DNA from: a virus
Lineage: Duplodnaviria > Caudoviricetes
Reading direction: 5' to 3' (one strand)
Virus record (IMG/VR): IMGVR_UViG_3300049070_000038
Coordinates: 1-41,521 of that record
DNA: 41,521 bases
A program made the position numbers and the translations under genes. Under the pieces are notes generated by a model. It saw nothing but the letters and a program-made list of their open reading frames with translations, was not told the DNA's origin and ran no database searches. Shown here one piece after another: positions 2,558 to 36,956 of this stretch (the first letter of the stretch is position 1; every line of letters starts with the position of its first letter).

Positions 2558-4363
2558 ATGAATAACACCACAATACTCCAAAAATTCATTCAACTCCAAG
2601 AAGATTTCTTGGAGTATTGTGCTTATAACGTATGGATTAAAAACGTTGGTGGTATTCTAGTTAGACTTCTTTTTAACAATCTTCAGAGAACACTATGGGA
2701 GTTATTCAAAGAAGATTGGAAAAACATTGATGGTCAAATTAAATGGTATCTAGTTAAGATGAGGAAAGGTGGAGCATCTACTTTCTTCATAACTCTCTTC
2801 TACTGGCTTACCACAATGTTTAGAAACAAAGCTGCATTGATTGTTGCTCACGATGAAGATTCAGCTAAAGCAATGATCAATACAATTCAAACTATTCACT
2901 TACGTTCTGAGAGATGGTTAAGGCCAAAGACCAGAACAATGAATAGAAAAGAAATCTACTTTGCTAACTCAGTAGAAGAAGCAGAGAAGACAGGAGATAT
3001 AGGATTAGACTCCATAATTGATTCTGCCACAATCGATACAAAGACATTAGCAAGATCACGAACATTCCAATACGCACTTCTCACAGAGTTTGGCCAATAT
3101 CCAGAATTAGGATTAGATATTGATGAAAGATTAGTTGCTTTATTCAATGCTGTACCAGATGAACCAGGTATTAAATCATTCATAGTTGCAGAGTCTACGG
3201 CAAGAGGAGACAATGCAGCTAAAGATTTTTGGTATGATGATACTAATGGATTTAGAAAGATATTCATTGGTATGGTAGCAATGGAAAGTTATCGTATTCC
3301 CATAACGATAGATAAATACTTTGAGTTGTCCGAAGATAAGGATTCAAGATATGGTGATGAATTAGAAGAAAGAAAAAAACTTATTCCTGAAATCAAATTC
3401 TGGTATCCTAATCTTACCACAGAGTATGAGATTGAAAGTGAGGTAATGGCAAGATTAGCTTGGCGTAGAAAAACAATAGACGTTAAGTGCCGTGGATCAA
3501 AGGATAAGTTTAAACAAGAATATCCCATAACCGTTCAAGATGCTTTTGAAGGTTCAAATGAATCAATCTTTCCCATAAAGAATATTCTTGAGATGGAAGA
3601 GATTTTAAAAAAATTAAAACTCAAGTCTAAAACTTATAACTATAATCACGATGACACAATCAAAGATAAGACACATAAATTCTATCCAAGTAAGTATGGA
3701 GCATTGGAAATTTTTGCCTATGCTGATCCAGATTCACATTATGTTATTGGAGCAGATGGAGCACAAGGAATTAAAGGAGGCGACTATAGTACCGCATATG
3801 TTCTTAAGCTACCAAATTTTGAAGAAGTTGCCTGTTTTGAAGACATCATCAAACCTTCTGAATTTGCAGGCGTGTTAAATTACTTAGGCTTGATTTATAA
3901 TAAAGCTTTGGTTGCTGTTGAGATAAATGATCCTGGTGGATTTGCAGCTAATGAAAAGCTTATGGATTTTTATAATTATCCAAATCTCTACTATCGAATA
4001 AATCCATATGAAGCAGCAGCAGGAGATATGCCATATGGTTGGAAAACCAATGATCAAACAAGACCTATAATGATTAGAGATTTTGATGATGATATACAGA
4101 ACAAAAGAATCTATATTAAATCAATAAAACTCTTGACACAGATGAAAACATTTGTTAGACTTAAGAATGGTAAGATTGGAGCATCACCAGGAAAGCACGA
4201 TGATTTAATTATAGCTGCAATGATAGCAAGACAGATAGCAACACAAGTTCATATAGCTAGACCAGTAATACCGAATAAAGCACCCAAAGGTTCTGTTGAT
4301 TGGCACATACAGCAATTAGGTATTAAAGTAGGGAAACGACCAACAATGCGTAGGGGCGCTTAA
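2558..4363 (+). CDS. terL: Terminase large subunit
   Basis: Walker A-like KMRKGGAST, Walker B ALLTE, coupling motif ESTA, nuclease motifs IGAD..G..GGDYS and HDDLIIA. Confidence 0.92.
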   Translation: MNNTTILQKFIQLQEDFLEYCAYNVWIKNVGGILVRLLFNNLQRTLWELFKEDWKNIDGQIKWYLVKMRKGGASTFFITLFYWLTTMFRNKAALIVAHDEDSAKAMINTIQTIHLRSERWLRPKTRTMNRKEIYFANSVEEAEKTGDIGLDSIIDSATIDTKTLARSRTFQYALLTEFGQYPELGLDIDERLVALFNAVPDEPGIKSFIVAESTARGDNAAKDFWYDDTNGFRKIFIGMVAMESYRIPITIDKYFELSEDKDSRYGDELEERKKLIPEIKFWYPNLTTEYEIESEVMARLAWRRKTIDVKCRGSKDKFKQEYPITVQDAFEGSNESIFPIKNILEMEEILKKLKLKSKTYNYNHDDTIKDKTHKFYPSKYGALEIFAYADPDSHYVIGADGAQGIKGGDYSTAYVLKLPNFEEVACFEDIIKPSEFAGVLNYLGLIYNKALVAVEINDPGGFAANEKLMDFYNYPNLYYRINPYEAAAGDMPYGWKTNDQTRPIMIRDFDDDIQNKRIYIKSIKLLTQMKTFVRLKNGKIGASPGKHDDLIIAAMIARQIATQVHIARPVIPNKAPKGSVDWHIQQLGIKVGKRPTMRRGA

Positions 4364-4372
4364 ATAAATTAA

Positions 4373-4678
4373 ATGAACAGACGTAATTTCTTAAAATCAT
4401 TTAGTGCTGCTGTAGTTGGAACTGTTGCAGCTATTAAATTACCTCTAGCTACTCCATTATCTGAAAGAGTAGCAGAGGTTAAAACTCGTATAGGATTAGT
4501 AAACGAGATTATAGAAATACCTATAGATAGATTTACCACAATGCGTATTACTAAAATTCAATACTATATGAGATTGAAATCATTTACAGCTAAAGGTTAT
4601 GTTCTTAGCAAAGATGGTAAGCAATTAATCTATAATCCTAAGTGGTATTGGGATGATGAGGAGTATGTTAGTGAATAG
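4373..4678 (+). CDS. Small protein with twin-arginine (Tat) signal
   Basis: MNRRNFLK followed by a hydrophobic stretch matches RRxFLK. Confidence 0.75.
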   Translation: MNRRNFLKSFSAAVVGTVAAIKLPLATPLSERVAEVKTRIGLVNEIIEIPIDRFTTMRITKIQYYMRLKSFTAKGYVLSKDGKQLIYNPKWYWDDEEYVSE

Positions 4679-4922
4679 AAGACATTTTCTAAAAGGATTC
4701 CTTGCTAGTGGAGCAATTATCGCACTTGCTCCACTAATGCTTGTTGTAGAAGTACCTGTTTCAAGTGTAACATTTGAATCTTTAGTTGCAACTACGCTAG
4801 CAAACTATCGTCCGATTTTTGTTGATATAATAACAAGGCCGAGTCCTATTTTTGAAGCTTTAAAGAAGAATAGTTGGATTGAACAAGGCCAACCTGTTAT
4901 TGAACCTTTTATTTTTAATTAA
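4671..4922 (+). CDS. Tat-signal protein fused to a major capsid N-terminal-like segment
   Basis: Likely GTG start at 4671 (GAGGAG 7 nt upstream) gives MNRRHFLK; the C-terminal half aligns with the capsid N-terminus. Confidence 0.8.
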   Translation: MNRRHFLKGFLASGAIIALAPLMLVVEVPVSSVTFESLVATTLANYRPIFVDIITRPSPIFEALKKNSWIEQGQPVIEPFIFN

Positions 4923-4928
4923 ATTAAA

Positions 4929-6797
4929 ATGGCTAAAAGTCTTACAAGTGTATATACACCACAAAGCATTCCTGCTCTAGAGAGAATGGAAGGTAGTTCT
5001 AAGGAAGTTGATAATGACATCTGGATGTCTAGACTTCATCAAACTCTCAGGTGGAGACAGAACTATTGGAATGGCGATAAGAACTGGAATAGAGCTTATG
5101 ATATGTTCCGTGGTAAGCATTGGAGAGATAGACAGGAAGAGGAACCTTCGAGTGATCAGTTAAGAGATAGAATTACTGTTAATATAACTCAATCTTCTAT
5201 CCTTGATATTGTACCATTCTTAATGAATAGCAATCCTTATTTTCAAGGTAAGGCTAGAAAGCAAAGTAAAACTAACTCTGTAATGCTTCAGACAGAGATG
5301 CTTAATTATACTTATGAGCAAATAGAAGCAATCGAACAGGTTAAGAAATCTTGCTATGATGGTGCTATCTGTGGACACGGAATATTAAAAGATGGATACA
5401 ATTTTGAGTTAGATGAATCCATTAAGAAGGTTGACGGTAAGACATTAGTATATGAAAATTATATTAAAAAAGATAGTCCATTTACTAAGAGGGTTAGTCC
5501 TTTCTTTTTTCTTATTGATCCAACGGCAAGTGAAGCAAACTTGGAAACTGCGAAATGGTGTGCAGAGATTTTTCTCAAAACTGAGAGGGATATAATTGCT
5601 AATGAGAGATATGACGCTAAGGTAAGAAACAAAATCAAATCAGGTTATTATCCTCTTTTGTATAAAGGCTCTGCTCTTGGTGTTAATGCTGATGATCCGA
5701 CTTTAAATAATTTAAGCAAAGAGACAGATGATCCTGCATTGCCAGAATCAAGACTTGTTCTATTATATGAGGTTTGGGATTGGAAATATGCAAAGGTTAG
5801 AACTTATGCTGATGGTGTACCAGAACCACTACTTGTAAAAGATTGGCCTTATCCCTGGTTAGACAAGTTCCCATTTGTTAAATTTGACTACATTGCTCTA
5901 CCTGATGAATTGTATGGAGTAGGTATTCCCTATCAAATTGAGGATCAACAGTTTGAACTTAATAGAAATCGTACTTATGCATTTGAACATAGACGTAGAT
6001 TTTCTGCTAGGAAATATGAGATTGGCCCTGGTGTAGATGAAGGAGAACTTATAAAGTTTGCTAATGGCGAAGATGGTGCAATGGTTAGAGTAAAGCAGAT
6101 AGGTTCAATTGCCCCTATACCAGATGCACCTATGCCAGAAGATACACAGATTGTTGAAGCAATGATAAGGTCTGATATTCAAGGTTCAACAGGCTTAGAT
6201 GCAGTTGTAAGAGGCCAAGCTTTACCAGCAAGGACAACAGGAGTAGAAGTAAATACAAGGACATCAATATTTAGGTTGAAGCTTGAAGATAGAATTAATA
6301 CAATAGATAAATTTGTATTGAACAATGCTAAGCATATATTACAACATATCAAAGGTACTTATAATAAAGATAGGGTTGTAAGAATGATTGGTTCAAAAGG
6401 TGAATACTGGGAAACACTTACACCTGAGATGATAAGAGAAGAGATAGATATTTTTATGGATACTATCTCTGCTCCTAAAGTTGATCCTCTTGTTGACAGA
6501 CAGTTAGCACTACAGGTTTGGCAGATAACAACATCTGTTCAACCTGGAATGCTTCAAATAGATTATAACGCTTTATTTGGTTGGCTTATGGAGAAATTTG
6601 GAATTAAAGACGCAGGTAGATTCTTTCTGCCTGCGCAAACTCCAACACCACCAATATTGGAAAATCCTGCTCCTCCTGATCCTAACAAGCAATCTACAAA
6701 TGGCATAGTTCCAACACTTGCACCACAACAACCAGGACTAAACGCAATGTTACAAGGTATAACACAGAATGGAAATCCATTAGGAGTGCAACAATGA
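4929..6797 (+). CDS. Portal protein
   Basis: 622 aa between terminase and scaffold/capsid; RVSPFFFLIDP, LYEVW, PFV...LYGVGIP...QQFELN patterns; Pro/Gln-rich tail. Confidence 0.88.
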   Translation: MAKSLTSVYTPQSIPALERMEGSSKEVDNDIWMSRLHQTLRWRQNYWNGDKNWNRAYDMFRGKHWRDRQEEEPSSDQLRDRITVNITQSSILDIVPFLMNSNPYFQGKARKQSKTNSVMLQTEMLNYTYEQIEAIEQVKKSCYDGAICGHGILKDGYNFELDESIKKVDGKTLVYENYIKKDSPFTKRVSPFFFLIDPTASEANLETAKWCAEIFLKTERDIIANERYDAKVRNKIKSGYYPLLYKGSALGVNADDPTLNNLSKETDDPALPESRLVLLYEVWDWKYAKVRTYADGVPEPLLVKDWPYPWLDKFPFVKFDYIALPDELYGVGIPYQIEDQQFELNRNRTYAFEHRRRFSARKYEIGPGVDEGELIKFANGEDGAMVRVKQIGSIAPIPDAPMPEDTQIVEAMIRSDIQGSTGLDAVVRGQALPARTTGVEVNTRTSIFRLKLEDRINTIDKFVLNNAKHILQHIKGTYNKDRVVRMIGSKGEYWETLTPEMIREEIDIFMDTISAPKVDPLVDRQLALQVWQITTSVQPGMLQIDYNALFGWLMEKFGIKDAGRFFLPAQTPTPPILENPAPPDPNKQSTNGIVPTLAPQQPGLNAMLQGITQNGNPLGVQQ

Positions 6798-6897: not shown

Positions 6898-7419
6898 ATG
6901 CCATTATACGATTTAAAATGTTTAGAGTGCGAATACATAACCGAACGGTTATTTCCTAAGATAACTGAATTTTTAGAATACAAAGACTTAACAAAAAAAG
7001 AACGTTCTGAACTTCGTCGCATTAAGTATGGAATACATCCTGGTTATGAATTGATATACTGTGGTAATGCTAGATTTAGAAATCAAGTTTGTAAATGTGG
7101 TGGATTTCAAGAATTAGTTGCTCCACTAACTAATATGCAGCCTGATAATATGTGGGCTGGAACAGATACAAGGCTTGGTTATTTCACATCTAAGAGCAAG
7201 TATGAACAAACATTAAAAGATAGAAATCTTGTAAGTGTTGATAAAAAAGAACTTGACACAGTTAGAAAGAACGTGTATAATACCAAACAAGATAATAAAA
7301 GGAAACAAGTAAAAGCTACAAATGATTTCCTGAACCAACAGTTAGCGAGCGTAGAAATTTCTCCTGACGGTAATACGTTAAAGGAAAGAAATAAGTATGC
7401 TCGTAAACGGAAACAATAA
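6898..7419 (+). CDS. FmdB-like zinc-ribbon protein
   Basis: MPLYDLKCLEC N-terminus and a later CKCGG knuckle. Confidence 0.65.
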   Translation: MPLYDLKCLECEYITERLFPKITEFLEYKDLTKKERSELRRIKYGIHPGYELIYCGNARFRNQVCKCGGFQELVAPLTNMQPDNMWAGTDTRLGYFTSKSKYEQTLKDRNLVSVDKKELDTVRKNVYNTKQDNKRKQVKATNDFLNQQLASVEISPDGNTLKERNKYARKRKQ

Positions 7420-8299
7420 TATACCTGATCCAAATAATTCTCCTAGTGGTACTCAAACTGTATTAGCTCATACACCTAATCCTTTTGCTAATCCTGGTGT
7501 GCCTGCTGGTTTTCTCAATCAAGACCCTAATAGCCTTGCCTTTATATTTAACAATGATTCTGGCGAATTAGAGATTGGCAAGAAACCAGAAGTTAAGCCA
7601 CAAGTACCAGAAACACCTAAAGAAGTAGCTAAGACTACTGATCCTAATGAGGAAAGATTTCTTAGACTTGAACAAGGTATTGCTACTATTGCTTCTTTTC
7701 TTGAAGGACAGAAAGTTGCTGGTTTAAATAATTTAAACAGTCAACAGACTCAGCAACAGCAAACTACTACACCAGAAGAATTTGATTATACAGGTGTAGA
7801 TATCTCTGATCCAAACAATATCAGAGATATAATTCGTAATGAATTTAAAACTCTACTTACTACAGAACTCAAACCATTGCTAGGTAAGCAGGCTGAGCTA
7901 GGCTTGAGAGCTAGCTTTAATGATGCTGCTACTAGATTTGGTAAAGATTTCTTAGAAGGCACACTTCCCACCATAGATACTCTCATCAAAAATGGTGTAT
8001 TGAAAAGTGATCCGAATATGGATTTTGTTAATATACACTTGCAGCTTAAGCAAGCTGGATTAACAAAACCAGTTGCCGCTAACACGGATAGCACTATTCA
8101 ACTGTCTAATGGGTCTACTCCAAGTGGACAGCCACAGACGGCACAGGAGCTTGTTCAGAAAGCTAACGCTCTCTCAACAGAGACTCCCGGCGCACAGCGG
8201 ACAATTATGACTACTACCAATCCGAAGAAAGGCACAAAGGACTACAAGGTTTCTAATGCAGTCCAAGATGCTTTTGAATCTGTTTTTGGTGGAGTTTAA
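7397..8299 (+). CDS. Putative capsid scaffolding protein
   Basis: Low-complexity, helical, directly upstream of the capsid gene, ends in an amphipathic helix (AVQDAFESVF). Confidence 0.6.
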   Translation: MLVNGNNNIPDPNNSPSGTQTVLAHTPNPFANPGVPAGFLNQDPNSLAFIFNNDSGELEIGKKPEVKPQVPETPKEVAKTTDPNEERFLRLEQGIATIASFLEGQKVAGLNNLNSQQTQQQQTTTPEEFDYTGVDISDPNNIRDIIRNEFKTLLTTELKPLLGKQAELGLRASFNDAATRFGKDFLEGTLPTIDTLIKNGVLKSDPNMDFVNIHLQLKQAGLTKPVAANTDSTIQLSNGSTPSGQPQTAQELVQKANALSTETPGAQRTIMTTTNPKKGTKDYKVSNAVQDAFESVFGGV

Positions 8300-8334: not shown

Positions 8335-9357
8335 ATGTCCAATCCCAATTTCGATACTCTTGTAGCTACAACGCTAAAGAACTATCGAGCAAATCTTGCG
8401 GATAACATTACTGCTCACCAAGTACTTTGGTATCAGTTGAAGGAAAGAGGCTTTGTCAGAGAAGACGAAGGTGGAACTTCGATTGTTGAGCCATTGCTTG
8501 TTGGTCGTAATACAACTGTAAAATCTTACGCTGGTTATGACATCATTGATACCGCTCCTCAGACTGGTATTACTGCTGCTGAATTTCAATGGAAACAGGT
8601 TGCAGGATCAGTCTCTATTTCAGGAGAGGAAGAGTTTAAGAATGGTGGATCAAAGGATAAGGTTATTTCTTTGCTTCAGTCTAAGATTACACAGCTTGAA
8701 CTTTCAATGATGCTTGAAATCAATCGTCAATTGCAAGCTGACGGTACTGGTAATGGTGGAAAAGACATTACTGGTCTTGATCTTGCTGTTGAAGATGGTG
8801 CTGTTTGGTCAACTTATGGTGGTATTGATTCCAATGCTTTCCCTTATTGGAGGAATCAATGGCTTGATTCGGTTACCGCCATCTCTCTTGCTGCTCCTTC
8901 TGCTGGTACACTTGCCCTTCTTGGTGAGTGGATACGCATCTACAATAGTTGTATGCGTGGTAAGGTTAGACCTACAGTAATCATTACCGATCAGCTTATC
9001 TATGAATTGTATGAGCGTTCAATGCAACAGACATCTTCCAACTATCGTGTAATGATAGATCAGAAGATGGCTGATGCTGGCTTTATGAATCTCCTTTTCA
9101 AAGAAACACCTGTTGTATTTGACGAAGATATGCCCGGTGCTACTCTTGTTGCTGGTGGAACAAACCATCAAGTCAAATTCTTGAATGCTGACTTTATGAA
9201 ATTTGTTGTCGGACGTGGCAAGAACTTTGTGGTTACTGATATGATGAGGCCAGAGAACCAGGATGCTAAGGTTAGCCAGGTTATTCTGTATGGTAACTTG
9301 ACAATCAATAACCGTGCGCGTCAGGGAGCGATTACTGGTATCACTGTCAACGCATAA
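8335..9357 (+). CDS. Major capsid protein
   Basis: ATG 8335 with GAGGAG RBS; about 340 aa; GGTSIVEPL, YAGYD, WKQ, YGGID...YWRNQ, AGFMNL, YGNLT motifs; position after scaffold. Confidence 0.88.
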   Translation: MSNPNFDTLVATTLKNYRANLADNITAHQVLWYQLKERGFVREDEGGTSIVEPLLVGRNTTVKSYAGYDIIDTAPQTGITAAEFQWKQVAGSVSISGEEEFKNGGSKDKVISLLQSKITQLELSMMLEINRQLQADGTGNGGKDITGLDLAVEDGAVWSTYGGIDSNAFPYWRNQWLDSVTAISLAAPSAGTLALLGEWIRIYNSCMRGKVRPTVIITDQLIYELYERSMQQTSSNYRVMIDQKMADAGFMNLLFKETPVVFDEDMPGATLVAGGTNHQVKFLNADFMKFVVGRGKNFVVTDMMRPENQDAKVSQVILYGNLTINNRARQGAITGITVNA

Positions 9358-34711: not shown

Positions 34712-35740
34712 TTAATTAGTCCCAAACAAATCTTTCAAAGCTGACTTACTCTGTTCGGGTGTGACTTCAACAACAGTTTCTTTCTTTGACTTCTTAGCTT
34801 TGCCTTCTCCCTTAACCTTCGGCTCTTTAACCTTCTTAGGCTTAGGCTGATGGACTGGTTTAACCAACCAGTCCAAATGTCCAGCACCTTGCTGTCTAGC
34901 CTGACTCAAAGAAATATCACCAATGAAGAATGAGATAAGAGCAACATACGGATTAGGAACATTGCTATCACTTGTCAAGGCTTTCCAATCTTTCTTGTTG
35001 AAAGCATCAGAAGGACTAGGCGTCCCATTCCTAGCAGCCCTAGCGTCCTTGCCTTTGATCTTAGTACCGCCAGCAAGTCTTACTTGTTCATCCAATCCTT
35101 CCAAGAAAGCTTTAACTTCCTTCTCATCGTAGGTAGCAGTAAGGCCAGTGGCCTTAGCAGCAGGCTTACCAACAGCTTTCTTAATAGTAAGCGCAGCACT
35201 TTCCGTAAGCTTACCTTTCTTAATGTATTCGTGTACAATCTTAGGCATATCACCAAGACTAAGGATATGACTAACGGCAGCGCCAGTGATACCGCACATT
35301 GTAGCAACTTCCTCTTGGTTCATACCAGTAGCCAAAGCTTTACGAATACCGTATGCAGATTCAACTGCTGTATTCTCAGACCTATTAAAATTCTCTGTCA
35401 ATTCCAAAGCAACATTAAGTTTAGCTTCATTGCTATGGACGATAACAGGAACTTCCTCAAATCCAGCAGCAATAGCAGCACGTACTCTCCTACGTCCAGC
35501 CACTACAACATCCTTCTGCAATTCTTCAACGTGAGTTATAAAGACAGGTGTATGAATGGCACCAAAAGCTTTAACTGACTCAACGAAATCAGGATCAAGC
35601 CCTCTATCTCCACGCTTGTCATAATATTTGGCAAGCAATCCCCTATGTTCAGGAAACTTATCAAGGTGTGCCGATGTAACGATCAGTAATTCTTGTGGAT
35701 TTCTAGTTTCAAGTGTACGGTTTGCAAATTCTTGGTTCAT
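34712..35740 (-). CDS. ParB/Srx-domain DNA-binding protein
   Basis: SV..FG.I..PV, VVAGRRRVRA (GxRR), ENFNR, HTH (QEEVATMCGITGAAVSH) and Lys-rich tail. Confidence 0.85.
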   Translation of the reverse strand: MNQEFANRTLETRNPQELLIVTSAHLDKFPEHRGLLAKYYDKRGDRGLDPDFVESVKAFGAIHTPVFITHVEELQKDVVVAGRRRVRAAIAAGFEEVPVIVHSNEAKLNVALELTENFNRSENTAVESAYGIRKALATGMNQEEVATMCGITGAAVSHILSLGDMPKIVHEYIKKGKLTESAALTIKKAVGKPAAKATGLTATYDEKEVKAFLEGLDEQVRLAGGTKIKGKDARAARNGTPSPSDAFNKKDWKALTSDSNVPNPYVALISFFIGDISLSQARQQGAGHLDWLVKPVHQPKPKKVKEPKVKGEGKAKKSKKETVVEVTPEQSKSALKDLFGTN

Positions 35741-36146: not shown

Positions 36147-36956
36147 TTAAAATCCTATGTCAATAACTTCTTTATCTTTCCAACAACTACGATCACCAAC
36201 ATTATCTCCGAATGGGCACCATTGACATTCATAATCCTTTGGATTGCTATGATCCCTATTAGGTTGCTTACCTCCACTCATAATTCTTTCGTATATATCT
36301 TTTAACTTATTTAACTTCTGGACTATAAAACCAGGATCAATGTCTACTCTAATAGGCATAAGTATTTTACTGGTCTCTCTGTGTTTAACTATAAAATACC
36401 ATCTCTCAAGATTCCACAATAACATATATCCTTGTGCTTGTCCATACCATTCGTCTGAAATCTCACTTTCTTTTCTTATCTTATCAAACATTGCTTGCTT
36501 AACTGCCTTACACTCAACACCATATACACCATATGGTGTAGTAATCAAAGCATCTGTATGTCCTATTAATTTATATCCACCAAACCTATCAGCGTTATAC
36601 TCTCCTTCCTGTGTATTAGCAGATACCTTAAGTTGATAACCATCAGGCAAACCACGTTGAATATTTTTTAATATAGCTTCTTCGTGGATATGACCATCAT
36701 TAAGAAAATTAACTCCACTCAATCCACTCTTCTTACCTATAGTCATTATCTTAAATGTTTTCTTTGCACATCCACCAATGTCTGATGATACGTGGAAATG
36801 ATCTCTCTTATATTCGTCATTTCCCATATCGTGCATTGATCTACAAATACTACAAGGCGTACTGTTTAGTGCTTTGATATGGTTGCCTAATTCGTGTGAT
36901 TGGTATAATAGGTTAGGCATTTCATCACCTATTTTAGCTGCTAATTCAATCTTCAT
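36147..36956 (-). CDS. Cas4-like PD-(D/E)xK exonuclease
   Basis: N-terminal Cys, G..H, GHTD...VECK, Q..GY and C-terminal CQWCPF...C. Confidence 0.8.
   Translation of the reverse strand: MKIELAAKIGDEMPNLLYQSHELGNHIKALNSTPCSICRSMHDMGNDEYKRDHFHVSSDIGGCAKKTFKIMTIGKKSGLSGVNFLNDGHIHEEAILKNIQRGLPDGYQLKVSANTQEGEYNADRFGGYKLIGHTDALITTPYGVYGVECKAVKQAMFDKIRKESEISDEWYGQAQGYMLLWNLERWYFIVKHRETSKILMPIRVDIDPGFIVQKLNKLKDIYERIMSGGKQPNRDHSNPKDYECQWCPFGDNVGDRSCWKDKEVIDIGF

Follow-up and report, generated by a model that had tools for sequence, protein, structure and literature searches.

Twin-arginine (Tat) signal peptides carry a twin-arginine motif and a helix-breaking proline at a set distance from it, and the Tat translocase rejects most unfolded proteins, according to the available text of PMC7317946. 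Tat also carries signal-less partners as hitchhikers: in HybO-HybC and PaoABC, as set out in the accessible part of PMC4273604, a signal-bearing subunit takes a signal-less partner along. The satellite redirecting proteins SaPI CpmB, SaPIbov5 Ccm and P4 Sid mimic or bind the head proteins of another element; respectively, they are known as a mimic of the scaffold, a homologue of the entire capsid protein and an external scaffold, and the descriptions available mention no export leader. Anti-defence mimics and sponges, including the Tad proteins and ICP1 Gp145, are encoded by small accessory genes and neutralise immunity by binding, and the accessible text of PMC13728456 describes none that is a copy of the protein by which the phage itself triggers immunity, or that has an export leader.

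The stretch of DNA analysed here (41,521 nucleotides, hereafter the window) is the whole of a 41.5-kb virus record carried by soil metagenomes. It encodes an 83-aa protein (4671..4922, + strand) in which a twin-arginine-like leader is fused to a copy of the N-arm of the major capsid protein. The leader is like Tat signal peptides (PF10518, TIGR01409) in its RRxFLK motif, moderately hydrophobic core and helix-breaking proline at the described distance. The fusion differs from them in that it is phage-encoded, its passenger is a 50-residue capsid piece rather than a folded cofactor enzyme, its cleavage site is doubtful, and the window copy lies below both curated cut-offs. The tail is homologous to residues 6-55 of the Mx8-like major capsid protein (NF033394, phrog_9953), but the fusion lacks about 85% of that fold and cannot be a shell subunit. 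Hitchhiker transport offers a model of how the fusion might work, although a partner and a role in removal are only proposed for it, and the known hitchhikers serve enzyme delivery. Unlike the satellite proteins, the fusion is encoded in a complete phage with its own head genes, and the window does not qualify as a satellite. The first-pass annotation of this DNA knew of no described fusion of this kind. Likewise, no phage Tat leader joined to a capsid fragment was found in the literature searched, which comprised few subscription papers and no supplements and in which a mention in a gene table is possible. No described system comes close to the design.

Architecture of the fusion gene and its match to the capsid

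The fusion gene starts with GTG and overlaps the end of the upstream ORF, inside which a Shine-Dalgarno-like GAGGAG (4658..4663, + strand) lies 7 nt before the start. Residues 1-34 (4671..4772) form the leader and a linker, with RRHFLK at 4677-4694, a hydrophobic stretch and a conserved Pro21. Residues 35-81 (4773..4913) form the capsid-derived tail, which contains two predicted helices and a strand motif ending in EP. The leader, which had been quoted as MNRRHFLK and a hydrophobic segment, is present as described. The major capsid gene (8335..9357, + strand; NF033394 at E 5e-75) encodes an HK97-fold protein, and the part that was copied spans 8350..8499. Its nearest annotated relatives are the capsids of Myxococcus phages Mx9 and Mx8 and Bradyrhizobium phage ppBjS10J-1 (32-35%), and its predicted structure matches HK97-fold shells. 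In the capsid model the copied segment consists of a long helix at the N-terminus (6-26), followed by a short one (30-37) and strands at 41-44 and 50-53. Only capsid residues 6-55 are present in the fusion, which does not have the full HK97 fold with its spine helix and A and P domains. In the predicted structure of the fusion (pTM 0.31) both helices are kept, but a compact fold is lacking.

The two protein stretches that the first-pass annotation had compared, from nt 4773 and nt 8350, were found where it had placed them, and recomputing the first 21 residues, counted from the shared Phe, gave the same 13 identities. Further along, LK is in register without a gap as claimed, whereas G and EP come into register only after a 3-residue gap. 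BLASTP aligns fusion residues 30-81 with capsid residues 1-55 at 20/55 identities (36%, E 4e-9). The tail-capsid score is 87; in 5000 shuffles the mean was 26.8 and the maximum 63, so none reached it, and the best of the other six-frame ORFs of the window scores 38. Comparing profiles of the C-terminal tail and the capsid gave a probability of 98.6 (E 8e-16). Shuffled controls and a profile comparison had both been proposed as checks on the match, and it withstood them. A structure-atlas search returned only unnamed clusters at about 0.9, which have low recognition value, and a predicted complex of capsid residues 28-340 with fusion residues 30-72 scored 0.01, a value that reads neither way. 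Contigs of four DNA runs over 4200-5300 show a single synonymous difference, confined to one contig of low depth, and their cover gaps over this interval are not readable as gene absence. No RNA dataset with the window was present among the 21 runs listed.

A family of leader-capsid fusions

A single-query search found three relatives at 68-77%. A six-sequence profile applied to 487 candidates gave 35 matches, of which 33 are leader-bearing proteins, one is a truncated capsid and one is the window's own fusion. Searching 1.84 billion representatives with a 31-sequence profile gave 94 matches. Among the 117 pooled proteins, 89 have an RR leader and 80 of these also have a capsid N-arm match, so the homologous fusions that the first-pass annotation had wished to look for do exist. 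The other nine RR-leader proteins failed the capsid-tail test; the searches were designed for the leader and N-arm design, by which other cargoes are not fairly counted. No fusion was matched in 50,697 annotated phage records, nor in viral contigs by a single query, and a scan of bacterial genomes yielded one unrelated Tat substrate and no host. A degenerate DNA pattern matched 92 stretches; among the 91 loci that were new, a fusion was present only in L154, on the same contig as relative L002.

Most of the 80 fusions (72) are 59-102 aa long. The capsid match begins at capsid residue 2-7 in 77/80, and it ends at residue 36-44 in 43 and at 53-59 in 27. Tail positions 6, 9, 10, 14, 21, 25 and 35 are hydrophobic in 97-100% of sequences at a mean pairwise identity of 30%. 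In one member (P0052), the leader and capsid N-arm are joined directly to the capsid C-terminal strand, a layout suggesting that the gene arose when a capsid gene was duplicated and lost an internal part. A single origin of all tails was not rejected (AU p 0.52) on a tail tree without starred branches, for which 48 of the 80 tails and 22 of 55 capsid N-termini were left after thinning. Fourteen of 69 tails lean to another capsid subgroup, the groups having been named after seeing the data. A weak search for a longer protein close to the tail, with three candidates and none scored, found none.

Several other leader-bearing loci were observed. In P0095, the leader is joined to a weak match of the capsid spine-helix region (E 7e-4). 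An RR-leader ORF at L052 10001-10282 has a tail that is unlike the Mx8-like capsid family and had no match in a family search; presumably it resembles the N-terminus of another capsid type. Loci L073, L074 and L075 are the same locus three times on one 94-kb contig, probably a concatemer or an assembly repeat, and were counted once.

Tat features of the leader and the sibling gene

RR is present in all 36 leaders examined, RRxF in 35 and RRxFLK in 28, and a proline lies 12-18 residues after RR in 35/36. The window leader has the motif NRRHFLK, which resembles the Tat S/T-R-R-x-F-L-K motif, and a hydrophobic core with a helix breaker (Pro21) 12-17 residues after RR. It scores 21.9 bits against PF10518 (cut-off 22.7) and 13.5 against TIGR01409 (cut-off 16.7); homologues P0006 and P0020 exceed the TIGR01409 cut-off and P0039 that of PF10518. 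The leader had been read as a Tat targeting motif, and by motif counts it is Tat-like, with the window copy just under the curated cut-offs. We infer from these features that the fusion is exported by Tat. AxA followed by Pro occurs in 25/36 leaders, and a later cleavage-type site not followed by Pro in only 9/36. A proline at +1 (Ala-x-Ala-Pro) may block signal peptidase cleavage, an idea for which PMC9360617 gave no confirmation. The cleavage site of the leader appears doubtful. A basic c-region (Sec-avoidance) residue is present in 21/36 leaders and absent from the c-region of the window's.

The leader type is shared with a sibling ORF of 101 aa (4373..4678, + strand), which carries a different, conserved 50-residue cargo. 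Copies of the sibling were found at L002 1722-2021, L076 1823-2131, L001 3516-3824 and near 1500 in L097 and L099; the gene is in the head operon in some relatives and among replication genes in two complete relatives without the capsid fusion. Derivation of its cargo from the Mx8-like capsid was ruled out by comparison with the capsid, and PDB and family searches of the cargo were without a match.

Common leaders of uncleaved appearance, and the same leader type on an unrelated cargo in complete phages that have no fusion, would suit a protein in which the leader does the work. Such a protein would occupy or jam Tat, or sit in the membrane, and the capsid piece would be a convenient amphipathic passenger. 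The nine RR-leader proteins without a capsid tail agree with this, as does the better preservation of leaders (61-76% identical among the window, L002 and L076) than of tails (35-43%). We consider this reading unlikely. The capsid-like tails of close relatives keep polar capsid-specific residues (Thr13 and Arg18 each in 30/31, Gly47 in 17/18 and Pro53 in 17/17), and across the family linkers of very different kinds are followed by a capsid piece with the same boundary, which is more than a generic passenger needs.

Selection and divergence of the tail

Different codons for shared residues had been taken in the first-pass annotation as a sign of selection on the protein. The 36 ungapped codons of tail and capsid comprise 6 identical, 9 synonymous and 21 non-synonymous, but this comparison mixes in selection on the capsid gene, and tails were therefore compared with tails. 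Among the six tails for which DNA was available, conservation is higher at codon positions 1-2 than at the third position in 15/15 pairs, 9 of them at p<0.05 (the pairs are not independent and 6/15 are not significant), so selection on the fusion protein is borne out by the tail-versus-tail test. Tail dN/dS, which had also been suggested as a check, is 0.47-0.55 where measurable and otherwise saturated, reaching about 0.8 for the window versus L046. Whole-gene dN/dS is 0.23-0.77 among three same-slot copies, and that of portal and terminase is 0.09-0.22. The tail is thus under purifying selection that is weaker than in core genes. All 33 close relatives are findable by the leader alone, in a test that is partly circular since the leader profile was built from some of them, and 31 of the 33 have a capsid-like tail.

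The raised ratios and the six non-significant pairs could also be read as neutral debris of capsid-gene duplications captured behind a common leader, to which a leaderless remnant in two relatives (see below) would add. This explanation seems improbable to us: the codon pattern is the same in every pair, Leu14 and Tyr17 are invariant in 31/31 close-relative tails, and the capsid boundary is nearly constant across the family.

Capsid residues 1-55 are 100% identical in the window, L002 and L001, and the tails have diverged as given above. The variable cassette is flanked on the left by the terminase large subunit gene (2558..4363, + strand) and on the right by the portal gene (4929..6797, + strand). 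Identity in the cassette falls to about 40-60%, making it a low-identity island, and in the flanks it reaches 90-95% (window versus L076 and L001). Between the window and L076, the leader is nearly unchanged (dS 0.13) and the tail is distant (dS 1.2), a contrast that speaks for an exchange of modules. Recent gene conversion from the phage's own capsid is not seen at synonymous sites. A single conserved helix face in the tail was not significant (p 0.42); among nine well-conserved tail positions, the three least kept (T12, N16 and D23) share one face, as seen post hoc.

Tail conservation tracks capsid conservation (Spearman 0.69), and the residues kept in 30-31 of 31 close-relative tails are Thr13, Leu14, Tyr17 and Arg18. 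This would be expected of a weapon against competing phages, in which the N-arm copy binds the scaffold or capsid of a co-infecting relative, the leader removes them from assembly, and divergence limits self-harm. N-arms bind scaffold C-termini in phages 80alpha and P22 (available text of PMC5644958 and bioRxiv 10.1101/2022.12.13.520362); scaffold as the documented N-arm partner favours this reading and counts against the bait that we propose below. The window has a probable scaffolding gene (7397..8299, + strand), so named from its position; it had no match in family searches including PHROGs and is a candidate partner of the N-arm copy. The tails of the window and L002 score higher against a foreign capsid than against their own (95 versus 87 and 139 versus 132), and the gene is accessory and fast-changing. 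These margins are small, however, and for the tails of L004 and L046 the own capsid scores best. In the window, L002 and L076 the weapon would be produced alongside the head proteins of the phage itself, and with N-arms identical in close relatives self would be hard to distinguish from rival. No integrase was found among 42 window ORFs scanned against PHROGs, so a resident prophage state is not indicated. On balance, we think a role against rival phages rather unlikely.

Genomic position and distribution

The head operon of the window is on the + strand and the replication genes are on the - strand; terminase, portal, capsid, polymerase and primase-helicase are all encoded. In the window, L002 and L076, the fusion gene follows the sibling ORF in the interval from terminase to portal; in L004 and L090 it is found upstream of terminase. 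In G004 it is among replication genes on the opposite strand. Eight related records have a completeness of 90% or more, with capsid identities of 31-82%; of these, only G004 has the fusion. In L001 and L003, whose capsids are 96-97% identical to that of the window, the same slot holds a leaderless remnant. Given this patchy presence, the remnant and the changing position, the fusion gene is accessory, and it is mobile. The remnant ORF of L001 (3811-4008), like that of L003, still ends in a capsid N-arm piece.

A place next to terminase and portal, and a hydrophobic stretch that might serve as an anchor (hydropathy up to 2.2 over 19 residues), would be in keeping with an aid to the phage's own head assembly, with the fusion tethering procapsids to the membrane or tuning their nucleation. 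This was the first idea of the first-pass annotation. Its broader term, a membrane-targeted capsid mimic, fits as regards mimicry, given the residues kept in the tail; the procapsid tether is the weakest of its three ideas, the gene being accessory. Patchy presence and changing position argue against an essential assembly tether: the gene is absent from seven of the eight near-complete relatives, and it has lost its leader in a phage with a 96% identical capsid. The tail also does not follow its own capsid, changing much faster and without recent gene conversion, and completed Tat export would place it in the periplasm, away from head assembly. We regard a role in the phage's own assembly as quite unlikely.

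A possible role as bait for a capsid sensor

Of the readings compared here, the one that we tentatively favour is that the fusion may act as bait, binding a host sensor of capsid protein, with Tat removing the pair or holding it at the membrane. The partner of the tail would be a capsid-recognising protein of the host, most likely a sensor of an anti-phage defence, and would be bound in the cytoplasm before export. The leader would then bring bait and partner to the Tat translocase, which would export the pair or hold it at the membrane, and the phage would be protected by removal of the sensor. A Tat-exported tail ends in the periplasm, away from both head assembly and cytoplasmic sensors; binding first and export after is therefore the easiest order for a two-part function. 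Transport of the partner as a hitchhiker would also explain why RR is never lost. Capsids are known triggers of immunity, CapRel and Thoeris being triggered by capsid proteins (available text of PMC13728456 and PMC12578639). The bait proposal draws on this, on the accessory and mobile nature of the gene, on its late or replication placement, and on a tail that changes fast around a fixed hydrophobic frame. The same kind of leader on another cargo in the sibling gene also speaks for it.

Several observations stand against the bait. In the accessible text of PMC12578639, Thoeris escape sites are in the E-loop and P-loop and not in the N-arm, and capsid triggers share a need for oligomerisation, according to the part available of a review (PMC13728456), which a 50-residue piece may fail to satisfy. 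A decoy could trigger the sensor instead of silencing it. The lack of a significantly conserved helix face in the tail, noted above, also counts against the bait. The predicted lack of a compact fold may also make the fusion a poor substrate for Tat, which rejects most unfolded proteins, and the low-scoring window leader, with no basic Sec-avoidance residue, may not direct it to Tat.

If the fusion does act as bait, it would represent counter-defence by export of a sensor rather than by blocking it, which is absent from the literature searched. The copied pieces would then point to capsid epitopes for unknown defence systems, and the fusions could serve as affinity probes. A broader view, which we find doubtful, is that Tat would be used as a disposal chute: a swappable leader would be placed on copies of the phage's own immune-triggering structural proteins, and the folded complex with a sensor or a rival's head protein would be exported. 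The tails would in that case be a catalogue of capsid epitopes recognised by bacterial immunity. Under the rival explanations too, the fusions are a recurring, selected gene design annotated only as 'Tat signal' or 'hypothetical'.

Other features of the window

Checks of the window for telling repeats and for a promoter excess near the fusion gene found neither. A perfect sigma-70 consensus (12/12) is present at 7253-7281, inside the ORF at 6898-7419 and just ahead of the scaffold and capsid genes. The gene at 1664-2257 is outer-membrane beta-barrel-like; noted as a lead only, it suggests a host with two membranes, and an ORF at L090 7357-7866 resembles it as judged by eye. The replication region contains a ParB-like gene and a Cas4-like exonuclease (34712-35740 and 36147-36956).
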